Shown piece by piece: positions 23,094-45,132 of a stretch of DNA of 64,000 nt. The notes below the pieces were generated by a model. That model saw only the letters and a program-made list of their open reading frames with translations, was not told the DNA's origin and ran no database searches. The number at the start of each line of letters is the position of its first letter. Within the stretch, counting starts at the first letter, position 1. A program made the translations under genes and the position numbers. The DNA is from a virus. Taxonomy: Duplodnaviria; Heunggongvirae; Uroviricota; Caudoviricetes. Location: IMG/VR virus record IMGVR_UViG_3300042400_000444, one strand, 5' to 3'.

Positions 23094-23367
23094 GAAACCC
23101 GATACCCATCGTGTAAGATTCTTTACCAGCACATTTACCGATGATGTTGACACACAAATGTCTGACAGATTTTGGCGGATTGCTGAAGAATTTAAATTGA
23201 CTCCACAGGCAGAATGGGTAAAAGATAATGATATTACTCTGGCGTGGATGGAAGATGACATATACTATTCCTTTGGCAAGATGTGTATTATATACGGTGA
23301 CTTAACTGAAAGACAATATGTAGATTATAGTTTACGATTCTTTCAACACCAATCGGATTGGAAATGA
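23047..23367 (+). CDS. hypothetical protein
   Basis: 106-aa ORF filling the gap; exact start uncertain. Confidence 0.55.
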   Translation: MAMNHTQALKHQWQSKKPDTHRVRFFTSTFTDDVDTQMSDRFWRIAEEFKLTPQAEWVKDNDITLAWMEDDIYYSFGKMCIIYGDLTERQYVDYSLRFFQHQSDWK

Positions 23368-24350
23368 AAATAATAATCACTGGCGGCGCAGGGTTCATCG
23401 GACATAATGTAACTCGCATATTAGAAGAACAAGGGCACGAGTGCATCGTCGTTGATACTACAACAGACTATGGCTTTATACCAAAAAAGGAATTGAATTA
23501 TCTTAAATCTTCACGTAAAGAACGTTTTAACTCACGTGTCATACATACTGATATATGTAGCGTTAATCATATCGACAGTATTTTTAGCGCAGTACGTCCA
23601 GAGTTAGTAATACATCTCGCTAGCTTTCCGCGACAAAATGTAGTAAGCCAAAATCCAATACTAGGGTCAGAAGTAATGACTACTGGCCTAATCAATTTAC
23701 TCGAAGCAAGCACACGTTATAACATTAAGAAGTTTGTGTACATTAGCAGTTCAATGGTATATGGTGACTTTAAAGATGGCTTGTTCGATGGTGTCGACGA
23801 GTATGTTGATTGTAATCCAATTGGGCAATACGGCATTATGAAGTATATGGGCGAGAAACTTGTAGCTGATTATACTCGCCGTGGCTGCTTTGCGCATACT
23901 ATCATTCGCCCAAGTGCTGTATACGGTCCGTGGGATATCGAAGATAGAGTTGTTAGTAAGTTTATGCTTGCGGCAATGCGTGACGAAGTATTAAAAGTTA
24001 AAGGTGCTAATGAGGTGCTAGACTTTACATACGTCGAAGATACTGCAATGGGTATTGCTCAAGCCGCATTAAGCGATAATGCTAACAATAGAATTTACAA
24101 TATTACACGTTCATCAGAAGCAGAATATACATTGCTCGATGCCGCTAAACTTGCTGTAAGTATTGCGGGCAAAGGGAGTATTCAAGTTGCAGAACGTGAT
24201 TTAGCATTTCCAACACGTGGTAGATTAAGCATTACTAGTGCAGTCGCGGACTTTGGGTACAATCCAACAGTTAACGTAGAAGAAGGATTTGCTCGTTATC
24301 ATGAGTGGTTTAAATTCTCTCCTTACTGGCGTGACCAACTTCCGTTATGA
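23364..24350 (+). CDS. NAD-dependent NDP-sugar epimerase/dehydratase (extended SDR)
   Basis: TGGAGFIG, HLAS, SSSMVYG, YGIMK, VYGP, DFTYVED. Confidence 0.92.
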   Translation: MKIIITGGAGFIGHNVTRILEEQGHECIVVDTTTDYGFIPKKELNYLKSSRKERFNSRVIHTDICSVNHIDSIFSAVRPELVIHLASFPRQNVVSQNPILGSEVMTTGLINLLEASTRYNIKKFVYISSSMVYGDFKDGLFDGVDEYVDCNPIGQYGIMKYMGEKLVADYTRRGCFAHTIIRPSAVYGPWDIEDRVVSKFMLAAMRDEVLKVKGANEVLDFTYVEDTAMGIAQAALSDNANNRIYNITRSSEAEYTLLDAAKLAVSIAGKGSIQVAERDLAFPTRGRLSITSAVADFGYNPTVNVEEGFARYHEWFKFSPYWRDQLPL

Positions 24351-25438
24351 TTTCATTCTTTGGCATAGACCGACAATACAAAACAATCCGCGAAGAGATA
24401 CTTGAGGTCACTGACATAGTATATTCAAGCGGACAAGTATTAGATGGGCAATACACTAAAACGTTTGAACAGACTATTGCTAAGATGACAGAACGTAAAT
24501 ATGCTGTCGCTGTTAATAGTTGTACTCAAGCACTCGTCTTTGCGCTAAGAGCTGTTGACTTCTATTCTTTATTCCACAAAAATAAAGTACTAATCCCTTC
24601 ACAAAGTTTTGCCGCTACAGTCAATGTTGTATTCGAAGCTGGGTTTGAGCCCGTGTTCTGTGATGTCGATCCAATAACAGGATTAATTGATCTCGATGCT
24701 ATCCCAGTTGAGCCAGATGAAATTGCGGCTGTTATGTACGTTAACTTGTTTGGTAATATTATTGACTATGATAAGTTACAGACGTATGTTACGTTCTTTA
24801 ATAGTCATCGCATACCCGTAATCGAAGATGCGGCACAATCGTTTGGTGCATACTATCGCGGAGTACCAAGTGGCAAGTTAGGCGACATTAGTTGTTTAAG
24901 TTTTGACCCGACTAAGAATTTTCCAAACTATGGCAGTGGCGGAATGATACTAACTGATGATGCCGAGTTCGCTGAACTATGTCTTAATATGCGTGATAAT
25001 GGTAAGGTATCGGAACATTACACTGTTGGTACTAACAGCAAAATGAGCGAAGTTGATTGTGCTCAGATGTTAGTTAAGTTACGGCATTTTGATGCGTGGC
25101 AACAGCGTCGTAAGAACATTGCAGAATACTACACAGAAGAATTAGATGGGCCAGTGCAGATGATTCCTATACATCATAATGTCGAACATGCTTGGCATAA
25201 GTTTGTTATACACTATCCAGAACGTTCACGCTTATTCTCAGATTTACATGCAATGGGCATAGAAACTAAGATACATTATACTGCACCATTACACATGATG
25301 GGCGTAATTGGCGGACACGAAGTATTAGTTGGAGCAGAACAGTTTAGTAAAACGTGTTTGAGTTTACCAATCTATCCAGAAATGACTGATGCAGAAGTTG
25401 AAGCAGTTGTTGATGCTATTAAAGAGTGTACTTGGTAG
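24347..25438 (+). CDS. DegT/DnrJ/EryC1/StrS PLP-dependent sugar aminotransferase
   Basis: VNSCTQAL, IEDAAQSFGA, SFDPTKN..YGSGG, GTNSKM, SLPIYP. Confidence 0.92.
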   Translation: MISFFGIDRQYKTIREEILEVTDIVYSSGQVLDGQYTKTFEQTIAKMTERKYAVAVNSCTQALVFALRAVDFYSLFHKNKVLIPSQSFAATVNVVFEAGFEPVFCDVDPITGLIDLDAIPVEPDEIAAVMYVNLFGNIIDYDKLQTYVTFFNSHRIPVIEDAAQSFGAYYRGVPSGKLGDISCLSFDPTKNFPNYGSGGMILTDDAEFAELCLNMRDNGKVSEHYTVGTNSKMSEVDCAQMLVKLRHFDAWQQRRKNIAEYYTEELDGPVQMIPIHHNVEHAWHKFVIHYPERSRLFSDLHAMGIETKIHYTAPLHMMGVIGGHEVLVGAEQFSKTCLSLPIYPEMTDAEVEAVVDAIKECTW

Positions 25439-28238
25439 CGTAATACTGTTTTAGCCAATCCCATTCAAACGTCAGCATTAGTCGATCCATATCACCATCA
25501 ACTTCATCGTAGTACATAATTGCATCTTCTGCGCCCTTAATGCTCCATTCTGCATTAGCACCTTCTGCTTTATGTAACCACTCATCAAGTCTGTAATCAC
25601 TCTCAACTCCGGCAACTTTACGTACATCATCACGTAGTTTAATACACTCTCTAAACGCAGTACGCCATGTTAGCTCTGGTGTAGTGTTATAATGCGCTAC
25701 AGCACTTAATACAGGTACTACAGCGTGTGCTTTGCTTAGTGTAAAGTCAAGTCCACTATCGTTTGTTTCAAGTACTAAACGCTTGTTATACGCAATTACA
25801 CCCATGTGTCCGTACTCTAATCCGTTTACTGGATTTTTAGCATGGAATATGTAGTGCTTAGGACCTTGCAAGTAGTCCGGTTGCCAATTCCAATCAAAGT
25901 TTTCAACAACTTCTAACTTAGCAAACACAGCAAAGAACCATGGCGTTGTACTAAGTTCAGCGGCCGCTTTGTATGCGTTGGCTCGCCCATTGACATTTTG
26001 TACACGTCTAACTGATCTACGTGTTTGATCTACTGTACTAATTAAATGTTCATACCAACGTTCTGCATCTGGTTCGCCATTGCTGATATAGATAATATCT
26101 AGCGCATGTTCATCAAACATAGGCATTTTAGTAATATATGGATAATCGTATGCTTGTGTATTGATAACAGATTTGGCGTCTCTAGGCACCAAAACATAGC
26201 TATTTCCGGCTGAAAAACCAACGATTTGACGGTCTTTTGCATACCAAATGCTCGGGTTATACACTACACCCAGCTTGTAGTTATAAAACCATGTAAACGG
26301 ATGGTTAAATTCATGCGACTTAATTACTTCAATTAAGTTGTCGCCACTGTATTCAACTACAGGAATAGGTAGACGTGGTACACGTTGTTCTTTACAGTAG
26401 TTAATAACATTAAACCAATCTAATAGTTCAAGTTCGACCATCTGTAATTTAAAACTTTCTACGTGTATATAGAATGTATCACCGCGTTCCTGATTGTTAC
26501 TTGGAAATACATGTATCATTTCTTTCTGCCACGGTTCGGGTTGCCAGCTAAAGTCAAAGCGAGCATAATCACATAAGCTACTAATTATCCACACATGTTC
26601 TGTTGTTGCAGTTGACATAATACGTTTAAAGGTATCGAGGTAGTTGTCAACATAGCGAGTTGTTTTAATGTTAGCATGTTTCTTTTGTAGTTGCTCGAGT
26701 TGATCGTTTTCGTTACCGTGATCTACAAAGTAAATATCATGTAAGTCATCTGGGATTACAATACTTTGATCTTGCACAAAGTTAAGGTTTGGAAATTCCT
26801 CTAAGCTATTTGCCCATGCAGTTGTACGTTCAAATTCCCATTTATTAATTAAGTATGTGTCACTCCACTTCTGATGTTGTGAACCAAATACATGTGTCAT
26901 ATAACTTTGCCACGGTTGCGCATGCCACGCAAAGTTAAAATCATCGTAGATATTTTCACTACTAATAACCCAAAACTTACTTGTCTTTGTACGTACGATA
27001 CAACGTTTAATTGTATCAATCATCGAATTAACGTAGCGCACACGTTGTACATGTGGGTATTGATCAACTAACTTTTCATAACGTGTGGCAGAACTAATAT
27101 TGCTCCGGTCAATAAAGAATATATCAAGGACTTGTAACACTGGATTATCGTGTTGTCCTAATTCCGGGATAGGTCCTGCAAACTTAACCTCAGTTGCACC
27201 AGGAACAGTATAAGTCAATCCAATACTAGATTGAAACTCTGTGCCAAAATGATATATGTAAGGAGGATCTTGTGGATGCGGTACCCAACTAAAATCTACA
27301 GTATCTGCATTAACTTCTTCTGGGATAGTCCATAGTGTACGATCCGGCAATGTACGTGCTACTAATACATCGATATACTTTTCTTTTGTAGCACCGGGTA
27401 CGCGATATTCTGGACCGCCGACTGCATTCCATACTGTTGGAAATTTATATATGTAAGGTTCTTCTGCTGGGTGAGGCGCCCAGCTAAAATCAAATGATTC
27501 TTTATCAATGTTAGTAGGTACGTACCACATAGACATGTCGCTACGGGTGCGGGCATAAAAATCATCCAAAAACTTAATTTCAGATGCACCAGGTACGCGA
27601 TATTCTGGACCTCCGATTTTATCCCAGCCCCACTTAACAGGAAACTGATAAATCATCGGTGGATCAGCAGGATTGGGACACCATGTATAATCTATACTGT
27701 CGGGATCAATATGGTCGGGAATATACCAATAATCTTTATTGCCCTTTGTATCTGCAATTATAATATCGATATACTTTTCTTGTGTTGCACCAGGCACTCT
27801 ATATTCGACACCGCCTACATTAGCCCACCCCCACTTAACTGGAAAGTGATATATGTAAGGAGGATCTATTGGATTTGGATGCCATGAATAATCCACTGTG
27901 TTTGCATCAATATTATCAGGTATGTACCAATTAGCTGTTGACGCTAACCGATTTACAGGATTAATATTTTTAAAATGCCATTGCTCAGAATCTACTGTAT
28001 ACTTATTTGCAAAATATGTACTGCCATTTTGTTGCCATTGACTTGGCCAAACGTGTACAAAGGTTTCTTCCCAAGGTACTGCACGATAACTAAAATCAAA
28101 TCCTTTATAGTTATTCTGCCCATCGATGAACCAAAAGAACTTAGTACGACTTAAACTTGCAGCTTCTTCTAATGTATCAGCGGGCAGTTCAAAAGGGAAT
28201 AGGTTAGGCTTTGAGCCTTGATAAAACACATCAAACAT
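25419..28238 (-). CDS. 939-aa multi-repeat glycosyltransferase-like protein
   Basis: C-terminal domain resembles the 42036-42932 protein (YIS..EP, KAAA..S.T, WR..FRE..K); several degenerate GT-A-like modules and tandem repeats. Confidence 0.6.
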   Translation of the reverse strand: MFDVFYQGSKPNLFPFELPADTLEEAASLSRTKFFWFIDGQNNYKGFDFSYRAVPWEETFVHVWPSQWQQNGSTYFANKYTVDSEQWHFKNINPVNRLASTANWYIPDNIDANTVDYSWHPNPIDPPYIYHFPVKWGWANVGGVEYRVPGATQEKYIDIIIADTKGNKDYWYIPDHIDPDSIDYTWCPNPADPPMIYQFPVKWGWDKIGGPEYRVPGASEIKFLDDFYARTRSDMSMWYVPTNIDKESFDFSWAPHPAEEPYIYKFPTVWNAVGGPEYRVPGATKEKYIDVLVARTLPDRTLWTIPEEVNADTVDFSWVPHPQDPPYIYHFGTEFQSSIGLTYTVPGATEVKFAGPIPELGQHDNPVLQVLDIFFIDRSNISSATRYEKLVDQYPHVQRVRYVNSMIDTIKRCIVRTKTSKFWVISSENIYDDFNFAWHAQPWQSYMTHVFGSQHQKWSDTYLINKWEFERTTAWANSLEEFPNLNFVQDQSIVIPDDLHDIYFVDHGNENDQLEQLQKKHANIKTTRYVDNYLDTFKRIMSTATTEHVWIISSLCDYARFDFSWQPEPWQKEMIHVFPSNNQERGDTFYIHVESFKLQMVELELLDWFNVINYCKEQRVPRLPIPVVEYSGDNLIEVIKSHEFNHPFTWFYNYKLGVVYNPSIWYAKDRQIVGFSAGNSYVLVPRDAKSVINTQAYDYPYITKMPMFDEHALDIIYISNGEPDAERWYEHLISTVDQTRRSVRRVQNVNGRANAYKAAAELSTTPWFFAVFAKLEVVENFDWNWQPDYLQGPKHYIFHAKNPVNGLEYGHMGVIAYNKRLVLETNDSGLDFTLSKAHAVVPVLSAVAHYNTTPELTWRTAFRECIKLRDDVRKVAGVESDYRLDEWLHKAEGANAEWSIKGAEDAIMYYDEVDGDMDRLMLTFEWDWLKQYYATKYTL
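27170..27935 (-). repeat. four tandem ~65-aa protein repeats
   Basis: W-x-[IV]-P..[IV][DN]....D[YF][ST]W.P.P...P.IY.F......G..Y.VPGA..K four times; DNA 16-mer acgcgatattctggac recurs near 27400 and 27595. Confidence 0.85.
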
Positions 28239-28749
28239 GTACTTGTTCTACTGTCAATCCACATTTAATTAAAAAATCAGCGCCTATTGTATCGCGATAT
28301 GATTGTGCATAATACACTTCTGTAATGCCAGCTTGATAAATTGTTTTTGCACAATCTAAACATGGGCAATGTGTAATAAAGATTGCTGAGCCTTGTGCTC
28401 CACCATTGAGTTTAGCAAGTTTCGAAATTGCATTTGACTCTGCGTGAAGTACAGTTGATTTTGTTTTCAATCTGTATCGACCAATGTAAGAATCATCTAA
28501 CTCCGACACTTCAACAAACGGCCATTTCTCATCTATCTCTTCAGGGTCAAGCCAACCACCAGCATCACTCGACATGTATTCTCGTTCTTCACATACGTTA
28601 TCCCATCCGCTGGGTTGTCCATTGTACCCAATAGAGATAATTGCATCATCTTTAACAATGATTGACCCAACTTGTAAGCGTACAGCACTCGAACATGCCG
28701 CATAATTAAATGCAGTGCGCATGTGTGCTAGTTTCATTTTATGCTTCAT
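28231..28749 (-). CDS. dCMP deaminase
   Basis: QVGSIIV, GYNG, HAESNAI, PCLDCAK. Confidence 0.9.
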   Translation of the reverse strand: MKHKMKLAHMRTAFNYAACSSAVRLQVGSIIVKDDAIISIGYNGQPSGWDNVCEEREYMSSDAGGWLDPEEIDEKWPFVEVSELDDSYIGRYRLKTKSTVLHAESNAISKLAKLNGGAQGSAIFITHCPCLDCAKTIYQAGITEVYYAQSYRDTIGADFLIKCGLTVEQVHV

Positions 28750-30236
28750 GATAACACCTTTACTCCGTATAGTTCTTCGAATCGATCTGCATCAGCACGA
28801 TCATTTATCATTGGTTCACCGCGTACATTTAAACTTGTATTAAGCAACATCGGACAACCTGTCCATGTATACCATAAACACAATAGTTCACGTATGCCAC
28901 TGTTATCACGTGGAACAGTCTGTACTCGACTTGTACCGTCTATATGTATTATAGCAGGAAATTCGTCAGGACGCAAGCACTTTGCAGTCGTTTGCATGTA
29001 CGGACTTGTTTTAAATCCATTGGGCATTTCAAAATACTCATCAACAAACTCCTCCAGTATTATAGGAGCAAATGGTCTAAACTGTTGTCTACGTTTGATT
29101 AAGTTTACAGCATCTTTAATATCAGGTCCACGTGGGTCAGCTAGTAAACTTCTGTTACCCAATGCTCTTGGTCCAAATTCTGCACGACCGTTAGCAACGC
29201 CAACAATCTTGTTTGTCATTAATTCAGACACAACATCGGCACAAGGATAAGGACCAGGAATATTGTGCCCGAGAAACGCATCTACCCAATTAAGTTTGCC
29301 TCCATGCGCAAGCGCCGCTGCCCCAAGACTGCTACCAGCATCACCAGGATTGGGCATAATCCAAATGTTATCAAAATATTCTCCCAAATCTCTATTAGCA
29401 CTACAGTTAAGCGCAACGCCGCCGGAGTATACTAAGTTACTACTAGGTGCTAATGTTTTTGCTTTATACATTATATTGTGTATTAATTGTTCTGTTAATG
29501 TCTGAGCCGCATTGGCTATTTCAAAATCATTCCATTTTGCTTTTATATCATTGTCGGGTAGACCGATATGTAAGTTATGTTTTAATGTTAGCTCAAACTC
29601 GTGGTCAACTAACCAATTTGAAAGTTGGTCACTTAAACGTGTTGTGTCTTGTTTTGCCCAACCCGCCATGCCCATTAAAATGTATTCTTCATCTAGCGGA
29701 CGCAAGCCAACTTCTTTAGTAAATGCACTGTACATTAAGCCGATGCTGTGTGGGTATAGTTGACGCCACACTCTTGTATATTGTGCCTTACCATTGACAT
29801 ATTTTGCAGACCATATGCTAATAGTATCCCACTCGCCAATTGCATCAATTACAACAACTGTTGCATCATCAAACGGGCTAGTTTGAAAGCCAGCGGCCGC
29901 ATGTGATAGGTGATGATTGTATGTTTTAATTGGAGTAGAACTTAACCACGGAGCGACTTTGTGTATCATGTTACGTACACTCCATCCTTTAGTTAGTTCA
30001 CTGTATTGTCCGGCGTAAAGTTGACGGGTCTTCTTAACCCACGGTCTTTCGTAGTATGCAATTAAATCGGGTTCGCCATAATTGAATACACAATCTCTAA
30101 GCATTTCAGCGTTTAAGTTTGGGTCGTGTTTAATTTTGCTATAACGTTCAGCATGACCTGCAAAGACAATATCGTCGCCTTTGATTAATGTAATTGCTGC
30201 ATCATGAAACCCAGCTGATATTCCTAATATATTCAT
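28746..30236 (-). CDS. O-carbamoyltransferase (NodU/CmcH/TobZ family)
   Basis: GISAGFHDAA, ERYSKIKHD, HHLSHAA, DAIGE, GGVALNC, PGDAG, EFGPRALGNRSLLADP, RPFAP, DGTSRVQTV, LNTSLN..GEP. Confidence 0.95.
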   Translation of the reverse strand: MNILGISAGFHDAAITLIKGDDIVFAGHAERYSKIKHDPNLNAEMLRDCVFNYGEPDLIAYYERPWVKKTRQLYAGQYSELTKGWSVRNMIHKVAPWLSSTPIKTYNHHLSHAAAGFQTSPFDDATVVVIDAIGEWDTISIWSAKYVNGKAQYTRVWRQLYPHSIGLMYSAFTKEVGLRPLDEEYILMGMAGWAKQDTTRLSDQLSNWLVDHEFELTLKHNLHIGLPDNDIKAKWNDFEIANAAQTLTEQLIHNIMYKAKTLAPSSNLVYSGGVALNCSANRDLGEYFDNIWIMPNPGDAGSSLGAAALAHGGKLNWVDAFLGHNIPGPYPCADVVSELMTNKIVGVANGRAEFGPRALGNRSLLADPRGPDIKDAVNLIKRRQQFRPFAPIILEEFVDEYFEMPNGFKTSPYMQTTAKCLRPDEFPAIIHIDGTSRVQTVPRDNSGIRELLCLWYTWTGCPMLLNTSLNVRGEPMINDRADADRFEELYGVKVLS

Positions 30237-30334
30237 TTATAAATAAATGGGTCACGTTTGCGCATTTCTTTTAATTTCTTACGATAGCGTAATTCCATCT
30301 TAATACGATTAATTATGTTTAAAAACCATTTCAT
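30233..30334 (-). CDS. 33-aa basic peptide ending in DPFIYK (absent from ORF track)
   Basis: MKWFLNIINRIKMELRYRKKLKEMRKRDPFIYK; ATGA overlaps with both neighbours. Confidence 0.75.
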   Translation of the reverse strand: MKWFLNIINRIKMELRYRKKLKEMRKRDPFIYK

Positions 30335-31557
30335 TGAAGTTCCCCTTTTTCAGTCTGCATTTTTCGACTACTAAAATCATATCCAGGTTGCATTGAGTCT
30401 ATTTGGTGTTGTTTATAATCAGAATCCGACCAACAATAATCAAACGTATGTTCGACTCCGTCTACTTCGATTTTATAAATATCTAAATGATTACTCAATT
30501 GATCCCATATTTCAAATGAATCAGTGGTACCAAAACTTTCCATTAATTCAACTTCGCCAATCGGCAAGTAGCCTAAACTCAATTTTTTATTAGTAGAGTC
30601 GATGCCATTGGATTCAAGCCATGCATAAAATTGAGTTAGTTCATCAACATGCCACCAATATTTTTCTTTATTGTATGTTACATCGTTGCCCCACTCGATA
30701 TCAAATTCACCGCTATAAAACTTCAATGAATTAATTGCATCGCAAGTGGCACCAGTATTCATACTAATATCTGTTGGGTCATTCCCTACAGTTAATTTTG
30801 GAGCATGCTCGTCGCGCCAGACTTCAAACAAGGTTTTTCCAATTTGAGTCCAATGCATATACACATGACCAAATTTTCTATCATACCCATTTGTAGTAAA
30901 TAGTTCTCTGTGTTCATCTGTTAATTCATGTCGTTTAGCATGAAGAAATGTAGTAATCTGACTAGGACGAATCCACTCGGGCATTACTGCTAACTTACGT
31001 TGACTTAATAGAATGTTTTCCATTTCGTGACATATAATATTTAATTGTCTAATAGCGTACTTAGTTTCATAATCTGCTAATTTGTAGTATGAACTTAAAT
31101 TCCATACTGTTCCTTGTAACAATTCAAAGTGATTATGTAATCTATTTAAAATTTCATGCTTTGGACTTAGTCCTATTTCAATATCGGGTCTGCCTCTGAG
31201 TGTGACGGGGTATGTGTCTGGGAAGCGTACAGTATTCGGGTGGAACCATTCTTCGATAATATACGATTGAAGACCGGCATCTTGCCAAGTATATGTTTGA
31301 TTAAATAAATTTATTGTCTCTATAGATTTGTTTAGTTCATCGCACAAGTATTCGACTGTCCTGGCAGACTTAGGAAATCCCAAAAAACAAAAGTTTTTCT
31401 CAAGTCGATCTTTAGATTGCAATATTTGTTTAAGTGCAACAACCCAATCTTTTGCAAGCGGATTATCGTATACTTTAATAGTGTATTCAAGTTGATCTGC
31501 AAAATCTAGCGGGTTGCGTAGTGTTACAGTTACTTTAGATTGATTGATACCATTCAT
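30331..31557 (-). CDS. hypothetical protein of the radical SAM cluster
   Basis: 408 aa, no CxxxCxxC; LNRLHNHFE and LNIICHEME motifs. Confidence 0.8.
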   Translation of the reverse strand: MNGINQSKVTVTLRNPLDFADQLEYTIKVYDNPLAKDWVVALKQILQSKDRLEKNFCFLGFPKSARTVEYLCDELNKSIETINLFNQTYTWQDAGLQSYIIEEWFHPNTVRFPDTYPVTLRGRPDIEIGLSPKHEILNRLHNHFELLQGTVWNLSSYYKLADYETKYAIRQLNIICHEMENILLSQRKLAVMPEWIRPSQITTFLHAKRHELTDEHRELFTTNGYDRKFGHVYMHWTQIGKTLFEVWRDEHAPKLTVGNDPTDISMNTGATCDAINSLKFYSGEFDIEWGNDVTYNKEKYWWHVDELTQFYAWLESNGIDSTNKKLSLGYLPIGEVELMESFGTTDSFEIWDQLSNHLDIYKIEVDGVEHTFDYCWSDSDYKQHQIDSMQPGYDFSSRKMQTEKGELQ

Positions 31558-36325: not shown

Positions 36326-37656
36326 AGTGTTTCGTACCAGTTAGTTAATTGCTTAAACGTGTATTTAAAGTCTTTACCACGACGTTGGTCATATTGCTGA
36401 TAAAAGTTTTTAAAGTCGTATAATAAATTATCATCAACTTGGGTGTCTTGCTGTAAGTATTCAACTAAACGTTTAATATGTTCATGTTCATGTTCGTGTA
36501 ATGCTTCATTCTTGCTATTGTTAAATAGAAATTCACTAAGCTCTTTGCTATACGTTGCACGTAGCTCGACGGGTAATATCATTGGACTTTGAAAGCTAGG
36601 AAAGCGCAATATGTTTAACGTAAACGACAATGCTTCGCGACCATACTTCTCTTTTAGCTTCATCATGTTGTATAAGAATTCACTAAGGCTCGGCAAACAC
36701 AGCGCATTGATTGTACACATGACATGTATGCCACGTACTTTTTTAGTTTCAAGTAAGAATACTAAATTACCAACCCATTGTTTCCATTCTAATCCATCAC
36801 GTATATATTCGGCGTGTGTGCCCATTGCCTCATTGCTAGTGTAGATGTCAAGTTCAATACCCTGTGTGCTATCAAGCAAGCGTTCAAGTATATCGCGTTT
36901 AAACCCGAGATTACTGTTAATTGCAAGACGTGTTTTACTTTCACCTTTGTGTGCTTTGAACCAATCAATTAAACGCCATGTGTTGTCTGACATTAATGGC
37001 TCGCCGCCTGTAATGCGTAACTCTTTTAATGTTTTGTGTAAGTCTGTTTCCCACCATTTGAAGAACGCTTCGACATATGGATTAACTTCATTGAGTTTAA
37101 ACAATTGACTACTATTATGCTCATGAGTAAAGTGATTTCTGCCATCTGAAACCAAATTGGTGTATGCGCCGTTTTGATGTATATCCCTAACCCAACTAGT
37201 GCTAAAAGCAGGATTGCAGTAAGAACAAGCAAACTGACAAGTTCTGTCAAAGGCAATTTCCAAAGTTTGTAAGTTAACATCTTCGCTTGCAGGTAAATTG
37301 TATGCATAATCTAAGTCCTTATCATTATAAATTACAGTTTTGTACACACGGTCACTAACTGCATCTGTGCTCATGTCTTCTATTTTCCAGCAGTAATCAC
37401 AGCCCGCGGGTCGTTCCCCTACTTGCATTTGTCTACGTTGTTCTTTCTTTTGTGGAGTGTTGTGTATTGCACTTGGATTTGTTTTAATTGCTTCTATATC
37501 GATTTGATGTGGTAGCGGATGATGGCAACTTGTAGTCTGCCCTGACCCTAACCATATAGTAGCATTATACCATTTAGCCGCACAGAATGATTCTGACTTA
37601 ATGTCAATTACTCTACGCTTATATTCTAAATCTGTTTCATTATTAATTTTTGGCAT
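36322..37656 (-). CDS. N-terminal twitch-domain radical SAM protein
   Basis: CAAKW, SCHHP, CDYCW, then CQFACSYC, GGEPL. Confidence 0.9.
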   Translation of the reverse strand: MPKINNETDLEYKRRVIDIKSESFCAAKWYNATIWLGSGQTTSCHHPLPHQIDIEAIKTNPSAIHNTPQKKEQRRQMQVGERPAGCDYCWKIEDMSTDAVSDRVYKTVIYNDKDLDYAYNLPASEDVNLQTLEIAFDRTCQFACSYCNPAFSTSWVRDIHQNGAYTNLVSDGRNHFTHEHNSSQLFKLNEVNPYVEAFFKWWETDLHKTLKELRITGGEPLMSDNTWRLIDWFKAHKGESKTRLAINSNLGFKRDILERLLDSTQGIELDIYTSNEAMGTHAEYIRDGLEWKQWVGNLVFLLETKKVRGIHVMCTINALCLPSLSEFLYNMMKLKEKYGREALSFTLNILRFPSFQSPMILPVELRATYSKELSEFLFNNSKNEALHEHEHEHIKRLVEYLQQDTQVDDNLLYDFKNFYQQYDQRRGKDFKYTFKQLTNWYETL

Positions 37657-37695
37657 TAAATTTATTTAACCTGTTAGTTGTACCGACGTTTAAAA

Positions 37696-38826: not shown

Positions 38827-38833
38827 TTATACC

Positions 38834-40222
38834 TTATGTCTCGGCATGGTATTTGCACTCCTGCCAGAACTCTGTCATCTGTGGGAATGTTTCCAAAAAG
38901 TTTAATCCTCTGCGTTTATCGTATTCATTAAAAAATCTATAGAAGTCTGCTCTTTGTATTGTAACATATTCCTTCGAGAGTTCGCAACCTTGTTTCATCC
39001 AATCTACATTGCGTTCCATACGTTGTATCTCATAATCTTTAAATCCTTCAAAGTTATCAGCAGTTTCATCTGCTTGATTTGCTTTCATAAATTCAACAAC
39101 ATCTTCTAATATGCGAACATAACTTGCTGGTAGTATTTGTAAACTTTGATACGTTGGGCTACGTAATAGCGGCGTGTCGAACCATACACGTTGATATGTT
39201 GAGCTGTATTTTTTACGCATCTCTAATATCTGTGTCAATAAAAGTTTTAATCCAAGTATGTTCAAGTTGTTCATTGTAATAATAAACGTTAGGCTATTGC
39301 GGTATGGCACGTCTGTTAGGAAAGCGTTAGAATATCGCATGACTCTGTCCCAGTATAGCCCATCGCGTATATATTCTGCATGTGCAGGAAGCCCAGTATC
39401 TAGACTAACATACTGCATAAAGTGTTCAATGCGTTCGCCTGTGCATAGTTGTTTAACTTTGTCTAAATACTTTTCAAATAATTGTGGCTCGACACTAAAG
39501 TTACTTGTTACATCAACGTGCAAGTCACTCTTAGGCAAGGCGAGTATGTAATCAAATACACGATGTGTATTCTTATCCATAAGCGGTTCGCCACCAGTCA
39601 TTCTAAAGTGTTTTAGCTTAGGATACAGCTCGGGCCACCAAGCCCAAAATGCATCAACATACGGGTTAGCTTCGCGTACCGGAATTGGCTTACGTCGACC
39701 TTGAAAGTGTTCGGGCGCATTGTGCGGAGTGCTTGTTGGATATGCACCCCATCTGTCAATATCTTTGCCCCACTCTGTTGAATACTGTGGACTGCAATAG
39801 CTACATGCTAAGTTACAGCCATGACTGAAGTTTACTTCAACATAACTTGGTACAACGTCTTGGTCCCATGGTGCGTTTACTATTTCTTCATAGTGTTCAG
39901 CCGCCCACGGCTCACCGGAACGATAGTGTCTATCGCTTAGTTGTTTGTTATCTTCTGCACTCCAACAGTAACTACATTCTGCTGGGCGTGTTTGCTCTAG
40001 CATAAGTTTACGTTGCTGTTTCTTGTAATCAGTATTGTGTAGCGCACCCGGATTGAATAGCAACGGAGCACTGTCGATCTCGTGCAATGGCGGATGATAG
40101 CAACTATTTGTTAGTCCGGTTGGTAGATGTAGACTTACTTGTTGCCACTTAGCCAAGCAAAGTGCAGGACCTAATTTGTCCTTCATCTCTTCTGCGGCTG
40201 TTAGGAAATTACTTTTTGTCAT
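38834..40222 (-). CDS. N-terminal twitch-domain radical SAM protein
   Basis: CLAKW, SCYHP, CSYCW, then CNLACSYC, GGEPL; likely start MTKSNF. Confidence 0.9.
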   Translation of the reverse strand: MTKSNFLTAAEEMKDKLGPALCLAKWQQVSLHLPTGLTNSCYHPPLHEIDSAPLLFNPGALHNTDYKKQQRKLMLEQTRPAECSYCWSAEDNKQLSDRHYRSGEPWAAEHYEEIVNAPWDQDVVPSYVEVNFSHGCNLACSYCSPQYSTEWGKDIDRWGAYPTSTPHNAPEHFQGRRKPIPVREANPYVDAFWAWWPELYPKLKHFRMTGGEPLMDKNTHRVFDYILALPKSDLHVDVTSNFSVEPQLFEKYLDKVKQLCTGERIEHFMQYVSLDTGLPAHAEYIRDGLYWDRVMRYSNAFLTDVPYRNSLTFIITMNNLNILGLKLLLTQILEMRKKYSSTYQRVWFDTPLLRSPTYQSLQILPASYVRILEDVVEFMKANQADETADNFEGFKDYEIQRMERNVDWMKQGCELSKEYVTIQRADFYRFFNEYDKRRGLNFLETFPQMTEFWQECKYHAET

Positions 40223-41198
40223 GGGCAAAATATCCAGGATTGTCATTCATAAGTTGGGATTGCTCTTTACTCATTTTGAGTAATAAATTGTAATTATGTT
40301 CTATGTCGGGCTGGCATTTATCTAATATAGCTGCCATCGAATTGTTATCGAGTATATCTTCTAATATCTGAAATACGTCATCGACTCGGGTGAATTCATC
40401 CCATTTATCATAATAATCAGGAATAATATCTTCGAACGTTTTGAATCCGATAGAACGTAATTTCTTTAAATAATTTTTTGCGCCGATTATTAAGAACGGT
40501 CGGCGATAATATATCGGGCGCAATGTCTTCTCTGTAATTAAAAATGAATCTGGATGTACACCTGTTTCACAAACTATTTCTATTGCTATCTGCTCATATA
40601 CAGTGTGCCATAATGGACCAACTGTGTTCAAATTTAACCAAATTGGCGGCTTACGTATAGAATCTATATCGCTGTACGGTCTAATAGAAGTGATATCATT
40701 AATTTTACAATCTGCATATTGACTAACTTTAGCAAGATCGACATTAGTATCGATATCCATAAAATCCTGACTAAAACTAGTTAGCCCCATTTCCTTATAC
40801 GGGCTTCTTCGGTATCGCAATAAACTATAAATGCGTTCTCTACGAGCAAGACCTATAAACATGCCGAATACCTTATTGCCATTCCACGGTATCGGATCTT
40901 TATGTGTAGTAAAATGTACAAAATCAGAATTATAAGTAGCTTTACGTACTGCATATACACTATGTTTTTCTAACCAGTTGTTTGTTTCTATAACGATTTT
41001 AGTCTTATCAAAATTCCAATATTCACAAAGGATGTCTAGTAGATTAAATAATCCATTTTCTTCAAAACTGTTACCTTCATATGTTCGTATAATTATATCA
41101 TCATTTGTTAGCATTGCCCGAATTATTTCAGAACATAGTAATTCTTTATTAAGTAGCTCATAACGAGTATCATACTTGGTAATTTCTATCACAACCAT
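40209..41198 (-). CDS. putative GT-B glycosyltransferase (GT10-like donor-binding motif)
   Basis: IEIVCET...FLITEKTLRPIYYRRPFLIIG resembles the fucosyltransferase E-N/T...Y/F-x-TEK motif. Confidence 0.5.
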   Translation of the reverse strand: MVVIEITKYDTRYELLNKELLCSEIIRAMLTNDDIIIRTYEGNSFEENGLFNLLDILCEYWNFDKTKIVIETNNWLEKHSVYAVRKATYNSDFVHFTTHKDPIPWNGNKVFGMFIGLARRERIYSLLRYRRSPYKEMGLTSFSQDFMDIDTNVDLAKVSQYADCKINDITSIRPYSDIDSIRKPPIWLNLNTVGPLWHTVYEQIAIEIVCETGVHPDSFLITEKTLRPIYYRRPFLIIGAKNYLKKLRSIGFKTFEDIIPDYYDKWDEFTRVDDVFQILEDILDNNSMAAILDKCQPDIEHNYNLLLKMSKEQSQLMNDNPGYFAHDKK

Positions 41199-42043
41199 TT
41201 AATTTTTTTCTCCGAGATGTTGTCCGAATGATTGATAACTGACTCAACATCGTCGAGAGTAGGACACATACTACACATTGCATTGGGCTTACTGAAATTA
41301 TTTAAAAAATCAGTTAACTCATTGTCATTACAATCCACTCCTAAACCAGTTTGCAAGTAAGGAGTCCATTCTGCAATATTAGGATTACCGAATCGTTCAA
41401 GTGTGTCCACTAGTAAACCACTTGTACTGCATTTATAAATCCGACCATTATGCATAAGTGGACAGGTTTTCTGACAGCATGCATCAAATGCACTTGCAGG
41501 ATTGTTCCTGTGCGGCTGCATATTTGCATACGTTCCTTTAAAAGATTTAGTAAACACGGTGGGCCGATTAATTTGAAAACGAAAATTATTCGATGTTTTC
41601 CAACGGTTGATGCCGTATTCTGTAACAGGCTCCCAGGGATAATCATTAAATATACGTTGGATAATCTCTTCTAGTTGTACATCAGGGCGATGCACTGTGA
41701 TTTTAAATACACAATTACCTATATCTGCTAAGGTACTAACTATATTATATTTCTTATGCAATAATAGCCCGTTGGTAGTAAAACGTATTTGTGTATCGGG
41801 CATCAATTCTCTGGCGCCAAATATCCAATCAGTTACTTCAGGATTTATCAACGGCTCACCGCCCATAATTCCAAAATCGGGTATATCTATCTTCTTTTGC
41901 CAAGCAGTTAGCCATTCGCGACCAGTCGACCACGGCACGTAGCCGTCGTGCTGTAAGTCAGAATAGTTAGTACACCCGGTGCAACTCAGATTACACACCT
42001 GAGTTATCATCGTTTCAAGGAAAGGTAATGTCGGTTTACTCAC
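41189..42043 (-). CDS. radical SAM protein with C-terminal Cys cluster
   Basis: ITQVCNLSCTGC, GGEPL, TNG; CCQKTC, RIYKC, CSMCP; likely GTG start at 42043 (ORF extends to 42073). Confidence 0.88.
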   Translation of the reverse strand: MSKPTLPFLETMITQVCNLSCTGCTNYSDLQHDGYVPWSTGREWLTAWQKKIDIPDFGIMGGEPLINPEVTDWIFGARELMPDTQIRFTTNGLLLHKKYNIVSTLADIGNCVFKITVHRPDVQLEEIIQRIFNDYPWEPVTEYGINRWKTSNNFRFQINRPTVFTKSFKGTYANMQPHRNNPASAFDACCQKTCPLMHNGRIYKCSTSGLLVDTLERFGNPNIAEWTPYLQTGLGVDCNDNELTDFLNNFSKPNAMCSMCPTLDDVESVINHSDNISEKKIKWL

Positions 42044-42932
42044 GTGACATAGGGCCTTTATTTTTAAATACACTTTTGTAATGATGCTTAAAGAATTTAC
42101 TTTGGTCTGCTGTTAAATGTGGTGCGGGTAATCCTAATTTTACATTTAATGTATGTGACATTTCATTGCATTCTTCTACTAAGTTTAGTACTTTGTTTTG
42201 ATGCCAAATTTTATCCAATGCATCAAAGTCTTGTACTTCTCTATAATCCCAATCTGTAATCATAGTCATATATGTGCCAAGTTTAGCACCGTACATTGCC
42301 CAGTCGCCATTTTCTACGTCCATGCCTACATTATGCCATATGCTTAAATGATCGTAGTTCCGATCATGTACACGCTTCTCAAAATCTAATAGATTTGGCT
42401 TAGTGCCGCGATCTAAACACATCTTTACGCCTTCTCTAAAACCTGCTCGCCATGCTTGATACGGACTTTGATTTGGGTATGTTGTGCTGTAGCAATCATT
42501 CATTGCCCAATAGCGTGGGTCAAAGCAAAACTCAACGGCAGTATCATCTGCACCATCACTTGCTTCGTGTGTACGCATATTGTTTACAAAGTCTTTAGTC
42601 CAACAACTCATGCCACCGTTGCCATACATAAGTCCGTTGATGTGATTACGTGCTTTCCATCGAAATACTACATCTTTATTGGTATCATCTAATGTAAGTT
42701 GTAAGTTAAAGAATTCTGGATCGGGTAAGTTGTCACCATCAATTAATACAAAGCGGTCGGTATCACTAACAGACGCGGCCGCTTTGTGTGCGGCATCACT
42801 GCCTTTAACTCCATCTACACGTTTAGCCCACGGAACCATATTTTGAATCTTAATCCAAAACTCTTCTTTTTTGGGTTCATCGTAACTTAGGTAAATGCAA
42901 TCTAAGTCTGCAATATCAACGATTTGTGTCAT
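42036..42932 (-). CDS. putative GT-A glycosyltransferase
   Basis: IYLSYDEP, AHKAAA, FVLIDGDN (DxD), YGNGG, WRAGFREGVK. Confidence 0.65.
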   Translation of the reverse strand: MTQIVDIADLDCIYLSYDEPKKEEFWIKIQNMVPWAKRVDGVKGSDAAHKAAASVSDTDRFVLIDGDNLPDPEFFNLQLTLDDTNKDVVFRWKARNHINGLMYGNGGMSCWTKDFVNNMRTHEASDGADDTAVEFCFDPRYWAMNDCYSTTYPNQSPYQAWRAGFREGVKMCLDRGTKPNLLDFEKRVHDRNYDHLSIWHNVGMDVENGDWAMYGAKLGTYMTMITDWDYREVQDFDALDKIWHQNKVLNLVEECNEMSHTLNVKLGLPAPHLTADQSKFFKHHYKSVFKNKGPMSRE

Positions 42933-43272
42933 AGTATTCTATATCCTGATAAGTGTCGGTGTCTTCGAGAACAATTCCAGCATGTCCTTTTACTATTTTA
43001 GTACCTTTTGTGCTTTTTGTCAATGGAAAATAATGCAAATATGTGGGAGTTATGTAAATTATTTTATCATCTACTAATCTTAAATTAGTCCAATTATGTG
43101 TAATATACAATTCTCTGGTTATTGCAACCCAGTTATCGCCAACAGGAAATCCACTGCCTGCAAACCCGGTTACCCAGTTGTTCTCATCGTAATACGCTCG
43201 ATATTCTTCTATAACAATACTAGGAACAAACGAATGCATTGCTTTGAGAAATTCTTCTTCACCTGTAGTCAT
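42916..43272 (-). CDS. hypothetical protein
   Basis: ORF overlapping both neighbours; likely start MTTGEEEF. Confidence 0.65.
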   Translation of the reverse strand: MTTGEEEFLKAMHSFVPSIVIEEYRAYYDENNWVTGFAGSGFPVGDNWVAITRELYITHNWTNLRLVDDKIIYITPTYLHYFPLTKSTKGTKIVKGHAGIVLEDTDTYQDIEYYDTNR

Positions 43273-44074
43273 CAAAATCCTTTTCATAATAATGCACAGG
43301 ACTATATTGATTTATATTATTGATACGTAGCACTGCGCCATGTTGTTCAATATTAACATGATCGGTCCACGGTTGTGTTTCAATCCATCCTTGTATTTGT
43401 GGTTTCATATGTACGAAATTAAAGAAATCTAACGTAGGAATGGTACATTGCTCGATACCCATTAATTTTGTAGTCAATGCAAACACTACATCAGTCGATG
43501 GTTCTTCATCACATTGAATTAGCTGATCTTTTACTGTGTTCCAGTTTGCATATATCAACCGTGCTGTTTTAAAAAACGCTGCAGCTGACTGGCTAAATCT
43601 AAAATAATACATACCACTATAGATATTAGGCAAATCATTAAGTTCAAATAATTTTCTATATGCTGTGTTAGTTATTGTTTGTTGTTGATAATTTTTGCAA
43701 TTATAACTAAAACATACATCGCGCAATCTTAGTGCATGTAACCAATGACTAATATCTCGTGTAAACAATAAATCGCTTTCTAATTTAATTGTTTCTTTAA
43801 ACGGCGTTAGATAAAATACTTGCCATTCATTAGACATTTTCCACTGTTCGTCTACTGCGTAGTCGTGCGGTAACTCGATTATATAATCAAACACTGCTCT
43901 ATGCTCGTCAGTTACTACTGCTAATGTAAAGGCATCAACAATAACTGCATATTGAGAATTGGGGTGCGTTTCTTTAATGTTCTGTGCTTGTATATAAGCA
44001 AGATTAAGATAATCTGTTTGCTCGTTATTCTGCGCAATAGACAAGAATCCAACTTGCGATTTAAATTCGCGCAT
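43259..44074 (-). CDS. putative GT8-like glycosyltransferase
   Basis: TPFKETIKLESDLL, YSGMYYF, STDVVFAL, FVHMK. Confidence 0.6.
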   Translation of the reverse strand: MREFKSQVGFLSIAQNNEQTDYLNLAYIQAQNIKETHPNSQYAVIVDAFTLAVVTDEHRAVFDYIIELPHDYAVDEQWKMSNEWQVFYLTPFKETIKLESDLLFTRDISHWLHALRLRDVCFSYNCKNYQQQTITNTAYRKLFELNDLPNIYSGMYYFRFSQSAAAFFKTARLIYANWNTVKDQLIQCDEEPSTDVVFALTTKLMGIEQCTIPTLDFFNFVHMKPQIQGWIETQPWTDHVNIEQHGAVLRINNINQYSPVHYYEKDFDDYR

Positions 44075-44846
44075 TGATAACTCCTTCTATTAATGTAGTG
44101 CAATCATCTGATAATAAGTATGCCTTGCTCATAACATGTAACGACTGTTGCGGCATTGCCCATGCCTGTGTATCTGATTTAATAAGTAATTTTCCGTCTT
44201 TTAATTTAATCGACTGTACTTTATTGCAAAATGAAACTATAGGCCACGGTAAGTAATTCATTGGGTCTTGACAATATCCGTTGAGAATGTTATCTGCTAT
44301 AGTAAACGCATAATCATTCCTGAAATTTGATTCATTTATGTTATATAATCGTCTATAATAGCCATAATTACGTTCAATTTTGCCAATTAAATCAAACAAT
44401 AACTTAGTACGTGGAGTTTTATTAAACACAACTACTGTGGCCCATAATGTGGGTAAACTGTATGTACCCATTTTATTTGCAGTAGCACCATCTATGTATG
44501 TATTGTGTCTGGCTATAGTATAATCGTCAACTGTATCTAATATTTTTAATAAATTATCATCAAATATTAAGTAATCACTGTCTAATAATATAGTTTGATC
44601 GTATGGACTAAGTGCGTATGCTCTTGCCCGACCTGCATTTCTCCATTGCTCGAATTTCCCTGAGTCAATCGAGTAACGTTGATTCTTACTTTCAATACTT
44701 TCAGTTATAATAGTAACGGGTAATTTTAAATAGTGTGAGATTAATAAGCTGGCACGATTCGCAATAGCTTCATAATCTATTGTGGCTGTGTTAGTCGCAA
44801 ATAAAACAACACCTTTAGATTTTTCTAATTTGTTTAAGTTTGTCAT
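44061..44846 (-). CDS. putative GT8-like glycosyltransferase
   Basis: SPYDQTILLDSDYL (DxD), WATVVVF, FRNDYAF, HVMSK. Confidence 0.65.
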   Translation of the reverse strand: MTNLNKLEKSKGVVLFATNTATIDYEAIANRASLLISHYLKLPVTIITESIESKNQRYSIDSGKFEQWRNAGRARAYALSPYDQTILLDSDYLIFDDNLLKILDTVDDYTIARHNTYIDGATANKMGTYSLPTLWATVVVFNKTPRTKLLFDLIGKIERNYGYYRRLYNINESNFRNDYAFTIADNILNGYCQDPMNYLPWPIVSFCNKVQSIKLKDGKLLIKSDTQAWAMPQQSLHVMSKAYLLSDDCTTLIEGVINARI

Positions 44847-45132
44847 GCTCGATATGCCACAAATTCATTACTGATTGATAGTGCTCACGTGCCACTGTTA
44901 AAAAATCATCACGATTGATACTAATGGGATTAGAATAAACATCCTCTAAGAATAGAATATCTGTTGGCCACGTAGTTACAAATGCTAGTGTCGACGGATT
45001 TATCAAAAATAGGCCGCCAGCATGAACTAAATGTAAGTCTGTTAAAATCTTTTCTTTAAGGGCGTGTTTGTTTTTTTGGTAGTCAGTAGCAATACGAATT
45101 TGTTCTACTAATTGGTCAACTGTTGATGTCAT
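44815..45132 (-). CDS. hypothetical protein, first gene of the modification operon
   Basis: Likely start MTSTVDQL, 5 nt after a TAATTA box (45138-45143). Confidence 0.65.
   Translation of the reverse strand: MTSTVDQLVEQIRIATDYQKNKHALKEKILTDLHLVHAGGLFLINPSTLAFVTTWPTDILFLEDVYSNPISINRDDFLTVAREHYQSVMNLWHIEHDKLKQIRKI

Follow-up and report, generated by a model that had tools for sequence, protein, structure and literature searches.

Which product is made by a long run of radical S-adenosylmethionine (SAM) and sugar-type enzyme genes lying directly behind the tail-fibre genes of an uncultured giant phage? The genes are carried by a stretch of 64,000 nucleotides (hereafter the window) of the IMG/VR virus record IMGVR_UViG_3300042400_000444, which belongs to the Caudoviricetes. 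The window comes from the genome of an uncultured jumbo myophage, of which it is a fragment. The closest kin of its MoxR-type ATPase and of its baseplate-region protein are found in PA5oct, Phosso, Atu_ph07 and Rak2-like giant phages (45-54% identity), and megablast of 15 kb of the window against 50,697 phage records detected no near-identical DNA. On the minus strand, an open reading frame (ORF) of at least 3,816 amino acids (aa) is followed by five fibre-like genes and then by 18 co-oriented genes running from 45132 to 25419 (the block). Two plus-strand genes meet the block head-on. The ORFs lie where a preliminary description of this DNA had placed them, and 15 of the 18 junctions within the block overlap. 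The answer we favour, at about an even chance, is that the block is an operon of soluble cytoplasmic enzymes, read from its own sigma-70-type promoter, which would build an NDP-sugar (nucleoside diphosphate sugar) or glycan and edit it by radical chemistry.

Pfam and motif checks confirmed that eight radical SAM proteins are encoded in the block, as had been proposed, and all eight contain the CxxxCxxC and GGEP motifs. They are listed below with their scores against the NCBIfam family NF033640 (N_Twi_rSAM, twitch domain-containing radical SAM protein), whose curated whole-protein cut-off is 170 bits, or against Pfam Radical_SAM.

41189..42073, minus strand: rS294, short radical SAM protein, accessory; Radical_SAM 41.6 bits; start codon uncertain
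38834..40246, minus strand: rS470, N-terminal-twitch radical SAM protein, core subfamily; NF033640 284.8 bits
37696..38826, minus strand: rS376, radical SAM protein with an N-terminal SPASM domain, accessory; NF033640 81.6 bits, under the cut-off
36322..37656, minus strand: rS444b, N-terminal-twitch radical SAM protein, core subfamily; NF033640 295.7 bits
35417..36325, minus strand: rS302, short radical SAM protein, accessory, paralogue of rS294; Radical_SAM 35.3 bits
34015..35349, minus strand: rS444a, N-terminal-twitch radical SAM protein, core subfamily, in 27 loci; NF033640 386.2 bits
32808..34025, minus strand: rS405, N-terminal-twitch radical SAM protein, core subfamily; NF033640 344.8 bits
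31535..32821, minus strand: rS428, N-terminal-twitch radical SAM protein, core subfamily; NF033640 293.3 bits

In six of the eight proteins a 4-Cys SPASM/twitch domain is located ahead of the radical SAM core. Five genes exceed the NF033640 cut-off (284.8-386.2 bits). Their Pfam domain order is SPASM and then Radical_SAM, and an alignment of 21 sequences showed the invariant residues C43, C62, C103 and C106, followed by C157, C161 and C164 and then by GGEP. With 81.6 bits against the required 170, rS376 is not a member of this family; its paralogue is the rS344 gene at 14730-15764, 22 kb away (29.6% identity). Both short enzymes, rS302 and rS294, have C-terminal Cys clusters. The closest solved structures, all of them remote, are an unnamed radical SAM protein, viperin, SkfB, MoaA, BlsE and the twitch of BtrN, and those of viperin, MoaA, BlsE and the BtrN twitch make this set mostly one of nucleotide or sugar enzymes.

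An IMG/VR scan with one radical SAM protein as query recovered 27 viral loci. Of these, 23 contain the full set of five core radical SAM subfamilies, and the remaining four loci are cut by contig ends. The shared order is the fibre genes, u128, u261, u271, u123, u298, (u329), rS470, rS444b, rS444a, rS405, rS428, u408, pep33, the carbamoyltransferase gene, (dCMP deaminase) and (p939). Thus u408, pep33, the carbamoyltransferase, u298, u261 and u271 co-occur in a fixed order directly behind the fibre genes, and this core is conserved in 27 IMG/VR contigs and in thousands of metagenome proteins. The accessory members are rS302, rS294, rS376 and u329; rS294 was found in only one other locus, and rS302 in none of the 27 viral loci. 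The synteny among related jumbo phages that the preliminary description had named as a check of its proposal is borne out by 27 viral contigs. In the cassettes of relatives, further genes are inserted that encode UDP-glucose dehydrogenase, DegT, RmlD-like proteins, hexapeptide acyltransferases, cytidylyltransferases, APS kinases, a GDSL protein and an Fe-S assembly protein; judged by their sequences, these form a nucleotide-sugar tailoring repertoire. Together with the synteny, these accessory genes support the earlier view of a secondary-metabolite-like sugar pathway. The relative G001, a 338.5-kb contig rated 97% complete, has eight N_Twi genes above the cut-off, five of them inside the cassette, and its DegT and ThyA genes are placed convergently, as they are in the window. 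A further accessory family lies among u408, pep33 and the carbamoyltransferase gene in 19 viral loci out of 27, which together hold 33 copies (for example L027:14808-15845 and L001:16000-17270); it has no Pfam match and is not in the window.

The sugar-type genes with clear family membership, together with a small peptide and a deaminase, are as follows.

30233..30334, minus strand: pep33, basic peptide of 33 aa with C-terminal DPFIYK, conserved in 19 loci
28746..30236, minus strand: NodU/CmcH-family carbamoyltransferase; Carbam_trans_N 133.8 bits, Carbam_trans_C 163.9 bits
28231..28749, minus strand: dCMP deaminase; dCMP_cyt_deam_1 68.5 bits against a cut-off of 25
23364..24350, plus strand: extended short-chain dehydrogenase/reductase (SDR) of the NDP-sugar epimerase or dehydrogenase type; Epimerase 139.2 bits
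24347..25438, plus strand: DegT/PseC-like pyridoxal phosphate (PLP)-dependent sugar aminotransferase; DegT_DnrJ_EryC1 292.9 bits

All five had been named in the preliminary description, and all five calls stand. The carbamoyltransferase has both Pfam halves, well above the gathering scores of 24 bits (Carbam_trans_N, Kae1-like) and 27 bits (Carbam_trans_C, YrdC-like), and its HxxxH motif is HHLSH at residues 108-112. It was rejected as a NodU orthologue (NF041651, 145.3 bits against a cut-off of 1000) and is a family member only. The SDR contains GxxGxxG, SSxxVYG and YGIMK (YxxxK) and scores below every NCBIfam equivalog cut-off; a role as NDP-sugar 4,6-dehydratase was rejected, there being no TDE motif before YxxxK. 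In the DegT protein the PLP lysine lies in SFDPTK (SFxxxK, residues 185-190). Its best NCBIfam match is PseC, with 197 bits against a cut-off of 423, which is not an equivalog match. The SDR and DegT genes converge head-on with the block; thyA lies upstream of them and has a sigma-70-like promoter of its own. DegT occupies the same convergent position in L002, L025 and G001.

The pep33 gene is translationally coupled to the carbamoyltransferase gene. Among the 19 loci with this gene, 18 encode an orthologue of 33 aa, and no Pfam family matched. The peptide contains no Ser, Thr or Cys. Its two ends, a W/K-rich N-terminal start and the PFIY tail, resemble those of a 49-aa Bacteroidota membrane ORF (...APFIYSLF), the hydrophobic middle of which it lacks. 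A role as modified substrate was rejected on account of this composition and of the likeness of both ends to the bacterial ORF, which accompanies a carbamoyltransferase. Because the 49-aa PFIY ORF precedes an SxtJ-like gene and a carbamoyltransferase gene in L056, L075 and L078, pep33 is best read, by sequence comparison, as a helix-less version of a bacterial carbamoyltransferase partner. The dCMP deaminase gene is present in only about 10 of the 27 loci. Since it is variably present and ThyA is canonical, a step in the pathway is unlikely, and the co-transcribed deaminase probably serves the ordinary supply of thymidylate (dTMP).

The candidate glycosyltransferases (GTs) and the other large proteins of the block are the following.

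44061..44846, minus strand: u261, GT8-like (GT-A) protein with a DSD motif, in 23 loci
43259..44074, minus strand: u271, GT8-like protein with ESD replacing DxD, in 23 loci
42036..42932, minus strand: u298, predicted GT-A/GT2-like fold protein with an invariant IDGDN; model pLDDT (predicted local distance difference test) 79.7
40209..41198, minus strand: u329, possible GT10-like (GT-B) protein, accessory; Atlas feature score 0.78-0.79 to Glyco_transf_10
30331..31557, minus strand: u408, core protein of 408 aa; model pLDDT 84.6
25419..28238, minus strand: p939, protein of 939 aa with a u298-like C-terminal module (708-870) without DxD

Pfam, PHROG and NCBIfam searches gave nothing usable for u408, u298, u261, u271, u329, u123, u128, pep33 and p939, and PDB profile searches with u408, u298, u261 and u329 gave chance-level rows only. 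The model of u298 was built on 21 orthologues, and IDGDN is invariant across 21 u298 sequences. All Foldseek matches examined were GT-A glycosyltransferases or nucleotidyltransferases of the same fold, among them RmlT, PcManGT, PBCV-1 A64R, GtrB, BcsA and ArnC. The matches are weak (Foldseek probability at most 0.94, E 3e-3 to 8e-2; VIA Z at most 7.5), and a GT-A/GT2-like fold is thus predicted for u298 with weak scores. In some marine metagenome proteins the u298 domain is fused to Pfam Glycos_transf_2. In u261 the D89-x-D91 pair is invariant (LLDSDYL). An hhalign comparison (98.7%) identifies u261 as a paralogue of u271, whose own profile aligns with glycogenin-1 over residues 4-110 (E 0.009). 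No GT8 Pfam match at E of 0.01 or below was obtained for u261 or u271, and the u261 profile finds nothing. The Atlas feature score of u329 lies below the level of 0.9 used for comparison, and Pfam, NCBIfam and PDB profile searches with it found no match. The protein is multi-copy in relatives, and in other phages a u329-like domain is fused to Epimerase/GDP_Man_Dehyd (NDP-sugar epimerases). A conserved E-T...FPTEK stretch presumably resembles the GT10 motif. We treat GT10 membership of u329 as a lead only.

The GT calls made in the preliminary description are all weaker than the family calls above: the GT-A-like fold of u298 is a prediction, and the GT8-like label of u261 and u271 comes from their paralogy and from the glycogenin match of u271. 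The p939 protein had been called a GT-repeat protein. Its C-terminal module was recovered by hmmsearch (708-870, E 1.3e-16), lacking DxD; two other modules are very weak (E 0.01 and 0.018), and Pfam found no match. The model of u408 shows a cyclophilin-like barrel with an inserted helical bundle, and many His, Cys and Glu residues of the protein are invariant. Its VIA Z scores of 7-9 to cyclophilins fall inside the noise band stated for the tool, and a Foldseek search returned no match; we predict a cyclophilin-like barrel and claim no function. In metagenomes the u408 family comprises 3,529 clusters at 90% identity, all unnamed. No homologue was found in the 50,697 phage records (cultured phages). 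A search for fused forms of u408 found none, which is weak evidence.

How the block is expressed bears on its purpose, and three sets of signals were located.

45190..45218, minus strand: perfect sigma-70-type promoter (TTGACA-17 nt-TATAAT) at the operon head, 3 nt past the stop codon of the last fibre gene
45164..45192, minus strand: terminator-like hairpin with U-run; minimum free energy -15.8 kcal/mol, z -2.76; abuts the -10 box
3158-3186, 12419-12447, 13233-13261 and 15749-15777, plus strand: the other perfect sigma-70 sites

Perfect TTGACA-N17-TATAAT sites number five in the 64 kb, against 0.06 expected. The four on the plus strand are followed by non-structural genes (an exonuclease, a small protein, a MoxR ATPase and a MoxR partner), and the five sites look like an early promoter class of this phage. 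The promoter at the operon head thus belongs to the class found ahead of DNA-metabolism genes in the window. At the corresponding junctions of relatives, at least 11 of the 12 promoter positions were matched in 9 of 17 distinct upstream regions, compared with 0.7% of random segments. The hairpin, which the preliminary description had reported, does fold and can stop read-through from the fibre genes, and transcripts starting from the promoter at 45218-45190 would lack its 5' arm. The overlap of hairpin and promoter also occurs at the same junction of L002, L010, L014, L016 and L026, and in several relatives the -10 box even lies within the inverted repeat. Such a tight coupling of a late stop to an early start is conserved across the lineage.

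The preliminary description had missed the perfect promoter and had proposed late expression from TAAATA-type boxes. Such boxes are no commoner than chance predicts: in the window, the T4 late motif TATAAATA has 4 sites against 12 expected, none of them at the head of the block, and TTAAATA occurs 32 times against 38 expected. Late expression is unsupported, as the hairpin cuts the block off from the fibre genes and a perfect sigma-70 promoter, conserved in relatives, heads it. Given this promoter type, and by analogy with T4, the block would be read by unmodified host RNA polymerase in early or middle infection.

Relatives of the radical SAM set in bacteria were sought with a two-subfamily alignment as query, a five-subfamily alignment being too divergent. 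This genome scan gave 250 relatives, mostly in Bacteroidota and Bdellovibrionota, with L028-L033 being phage contigs binned into metagenome-assembled genomes (MAGs). In a survey of 134 genes around 12 loci (L043, L051-L053, L056, L066, L075, L078, L081, L098, L101 and L104), the enriched neighbours were radical SAM/SPASM genes, PhyH dioxygenases (15), carbamoyltransferases and epimerases. WelO5-like halogenases accompany the PhyH dioxygenases beside bacterial N_Twi genes. In L056 the order is SDR, carbamoyltransferase, SxtJ, the PFIY ORF, a UbiA-GT4-GDSL fusion, N_Twi, an N-SPASM radical SAM gene, a sulfotransferase, GDSL, N_Twi and PhyH.

The five phage subfamilies each form a supported clade (SH-aLRT 96-100) in a quick maximum-likelihood tree, and rS470 is a separate clade with a bacterial sister. 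One bacterial locus, L041 of the Bacteriovoracaceae bacterium UBA6144, has sister genes for four of the five phage subfamilies, and the fifth, rS444a, shares a broad clade with the L041 gene at 9995-11224. The array (L041:6049-18045) consists of eight radical SAM-like ORFs, six of them placed in the tree, and is located on a bacterial chromosome, adjoining rplU, rpmA and obg, with an NTP-transferase beside it. A small Cys-rich, Sel1-like ORF with a signal peptide lies in the middle of the array (12364-12795). Because neither a GT nor a carbamoyltransferase gene is present within 10 kb of this array, the radical SAM set does not need them and looks like an independent module.

Under the favoured reading, the SDR and DegT proteins would together convert a host NDP-hexose to an NDP-amino sugar. 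The five core N-terminal-twitch radical SAM enzymes, and the accessory ones, may then each perform one radical step on the sugar ring, candidate steps being oxidation, epimerisation, dehydration and C-C chemistry. A hydroxyl would be O-carbamoylated by the NodU-family enzyme with pep33 as its partner, and the product might be transferred in the cytoplasm to its acceptor by u298 (GT-A), by u261 and u271 (GT8-like) and possibly by u329 (GT10-like). Substrates, step order and acceptor are proposals, whereas family membership, motifs, synteny, promoter class and the lack of membrane segments are direct observations. Counting for this reading are the neighbours of the bacterial homologues (a carbamoyltransferase with SxtJ, an SDR, the UbiA-GT4-GDSL fusion, a sulfotransferase and an NTP-transferase), the fusions of u298-like and u329-like domains, and the nearest solved radical SAM structures. 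The cytoplasmic setting agrees with the finding that no transmembrane window was detected in any cassette protein. As to the acceptor, we tentatively name the virion (fibre) proteins of the phage, as the preliminary description had done, a doubtful choice and still the one we would back; a host envelope precursor is unlikely, a free metabolite distinctly more so, and a nucleic acid more improbable again. The place behind Ser/Thr-rich fibres (Ser+Thr 23-26%) and the A64R-like fold of u298 favour virion proteins, and the promoter class does not.

Several observations weigh against the favoured reading. The GT assignments are weak, being made by fold and profile, with Pfam and NCBIfam silent. Only a remote likeness (E 1e-7 to 0.06) links the radical SAM proteins to enzymes of their class that act on sugars, and no reaction, substrate or structure for NF033640 was found in literature and structure searches. 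The Bacteriovoracaceae array covers the five phage subfamilies with neither GT nor carbamoyltransferase gene nearby, and many PhyH dioxygenases and ABC-2 exporters lie beside bacterial arrays, for which natural-product or peptide chemistry fits equally well. Known virion-glycosylation genes, including those of mycobacteriophages, lie in late structural operons; the early-type promoter of the block and its co-transcription with a dCMP deaminase gene are unlike them.

The early promoter suits a different target, the host envelope. Working from the cytoplasmic side of the inner membrane, the soluble GT8-like and GT-A enzymes might act on lipopolysaccharide (LPS) core or capsule precursors, and the cell surface would then change early, for superinfection exclusion or for less sticking of progeny to debris. 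Such remodelling is unlikely on balance. In its favour, the GT8 enzymes of LPS synthesis are peripheral proteins that have no transmembrane helices. The Bacteroidota locus L056 also joins the radical SAM family to a UbiA-GT4-GDSL fusion, and LPS modification is how comparable genes of pelagimyophages and cyanomyophages (GT8, radical SAM and 'Nol-like carbamoyltransferase') have been interpreted in print (PMC7029224), although that interpretation is itself only proposed. Against it, the block is strictly tied to its place behind the fibre genes, and its 20 kb contain no flippase, polymerase, ligase or polyprenyl-phosphate (lipid-carrier) transferase gene. As these and any membrane protein are missing from the block, a full envelope-glycan pathway is judged absent, and peripheral action on the LPS core is possible. 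The radical SAM array might instead be a set of protein or peptide maturases, introducing crosslinks or epimerisations into a phage protein such as a fibre, with the sugar genes serving a separate end. SPASM/twitch domains are typical of peptide maturases, to many of which weak NCBIfam matches of the radical SAM proteins point; one bacterial array adjoins an ABC-2 exporter, that of L041 encloses a small Cys-rich secreted protein, and the latter covers all five subfamilies without GTs. We regard this as improbable all the same: no precursor-like gene or recognition element for ribosomally synthesised and post-translationally modified peptides was seen, no dedicated search for recognition elements having been made; pep33 lacks Ser, Thr and Cys and resembles a carbamoyltransferase partner; and in all relatives the radical SAM genes are translationally coupled with those of u408, the carbamoyltransferase and the GTs.

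A free small molecule, aminoglycoside-like or nucleoside-like and directed against the host or competing phages, would also agree with soluble enzymes and an early-type promoter, and a B12 radical SAM gene in another part of the window and the PhyH (KanJ-type) dioxygenases among the bacterial neighbours point the same way. The enzyme set, with BtrN-type twitch radical SAM proteins, DegT, a TobZ-type carbamoyltransferase and GTs, would mirror the aminoglycoside pathways described in the literature. No cyclitol synthase, exporter or resistance gene was found, and the position behind the fibre genes would be unexplained, which leaves little room for such a product. Least probable is hypermodification of DNA or nucleotides, that is, glycosylation or carbamoylation of a modified base. 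It would fit the early-type promoter, the co-transcription of the block with dCMP deaminase near thyA and the presence of 7-deazaguanine genes elsewhere in the window, and phage DNA glycosyltransferases are, as PMC12619734 cites Pyle et al. 2024, likewise soluble GT-A or GT-B enzymes. The dCMP deaminase, however, is not in most relatives' cassettes. ThyA is canonical (374 bits against a thymidylate synthase equivalog cut-off of 327), and the 97%-complete relative G001, the genome in which the check was made, has a single PF00303 (ThyA) match and no PF01702 (TGT/DpdA) match, so the known entry steps to DNA hypermodification, a hydroxymethyl-pyrimidine or base exchange, were not seen. This alternative, offered in the preliminary description, is accordingly weakened. 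Finally, a bolder account, rather unlikely in our judgement, takes up the modular nature of the radical SAM set. The five N-terminal-twitch subfamilies would be an ancient, self-contained editing module common to aquatic jumbo phages and predatory Bdellovibrionota. Its enzymes would all act on a single nucleotide-sugar or nucleoside-like scaffold, each through a radical reaction of its own that has yet to be described, and the product would be made early in infection as a weapon or cloak (a free aminoglycoside-like metabolite or a glycan type without known counterpart).

How does the sugar-editing operon that we favour compare with systems already described? The five genes above the NF033640 cut-off share with that family the N-terminal 4-Cys twitch, CxxxCxxC and GGEP. 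The family, however, is only catalogued, whereas here five old, separately conserved subfamilies work as a set. The host-recognition cluster of pelagimyophages and the 'LPS gene' clusters of T4-like cyanophages (P-SSM2 nol; PMC7029224) likewise have GT8-type GTs, radical SAM cassettes and Nol-like carbamoyltransferases beside tail-fibre genes, and in the pelagimyophage cluster the GT8 and radical SAM genes are not characterised (PMC7029224). The cyanomyophage 'Nol-like carbamoyltransferase' annotations are the other nearest published observation. Those clusters are hypervariable, and identity in the carbamoyltransferase is only 27-34%. The window cassette, unlike them, has a fixed core order, contains u408 and pep33, and belongs to a Rak2/PA5oct/Atu_ph07-like jumbo lineage. 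PBCV-1 A64R, a capsid glycosyltransferase that ranks among the top fold matches of u298, and the glycosylation of mycobacteriophage capsid and tail-tube proteins (Freeman et al. 2023, as cited in PMC12619734) provide examples of virus-encoded soluble GT-A enzymes acting on structural proteins. These systems are not known to include radical SAM enzymes or a carbamoyltransferase.

With the enzymes of aminoglycoside and amino-sugar tailoring (BtrN, HygY, TobZ and the DegT family) the block shares enzyme superfamilies, including the two-domain build of the TobZ/NodU carbamoyltransferases. The N-terminal twitch aligns weakly with that of BtrN (E 0.06); the twitch is C-terminal in those enzymes and N-terminal in the window, and identity is too low for orthology. 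The bacterial trio of carbamoyltransferase, SxtJ and DUF5989/SxtK-like protein is comparable in that a PFIY ORF, an SxtJ-like gene and a carbamoyltransferase gene lie next to N_Twi in L056, L075 and L078. It differs in that pep33 of the window has no transmembrane helix and the cassette has no SxtJ. Full-text literature searches found no description of the cassette. It falls among phage sugar-tailoring clusters already known as a kind; the earlier remark that no characterised phage pathway of this composition was known agrees with this literature result and with the lack of a u408 homologue in the phage records.

For twenty years phages have been seen to carry sugar genes next to their tail fibres, as in the cyanophage 'LPS genes' and in the pelagimyophage host-recognition cluster. 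The present cassette is a cleaner case, with a fixed core that is widespread in lake and ocean metagenomes and with five paralogues of a radical SAM family to which no chemistry has been assigned. We know of no such cluster with a known product. Solving the cassette would yield new radical SAM reactions. It would also reveal what giant aquatic phages use such genes for, be it sugars on their own virions, a changed host surface or a metabolite. A laboratory entry point is offered by the Ralstonia phage RsoM2USA (L106, MG752970.1), the only cultured phage with close parts of the cassette. It has orthologues of one radical SAM subfamily (rS444b, 51% identity, gp202), of the carbamoyltransferase (46%, gp199) and of the GT-A protein u298 (40%), all annotated as hypothetical; the homologues are located at 123.4-128.3 kb and, in the case of u298, at 218.7-219.7 kb.

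Two small proteins complete the block.

44815..45132, minus strand: u128, 105 aa, first gene of the operon, with orthologues of about 104 aa in 21 loci
42916..43287, minus strand: u123, 123 aa, in 20 loci at 30-57% identity

The true start of u128 is the ATG at 45132; Pfam and PHROG searches with u128, and family searches (Pfam and others) with u123, found no match. Among the loci recovered, L028-L032 are contigs of 148-183 kb with an entire phage cassette and fibre genes that were deposited inside bacterial MAGs, L031 and L032 (NZ_JBBAKG010000001/3) in a 'Haliscomenobacter sp.' MAG. They are probably phage DNA mis-binned into bacterial MAGs. An inference of the host from this binning was rejected and no host is called, as the Polynucleobacter, Haliscomenobacter, Verrucomicrobia and Betaproteobacteria MAGs are mutually inconsistent. 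The open frame upstream of the fibre genes (52467-63998, minus strand, at least 3,816 aa) continues past the end of the window and probably encodes a giant virion or fibre protein.

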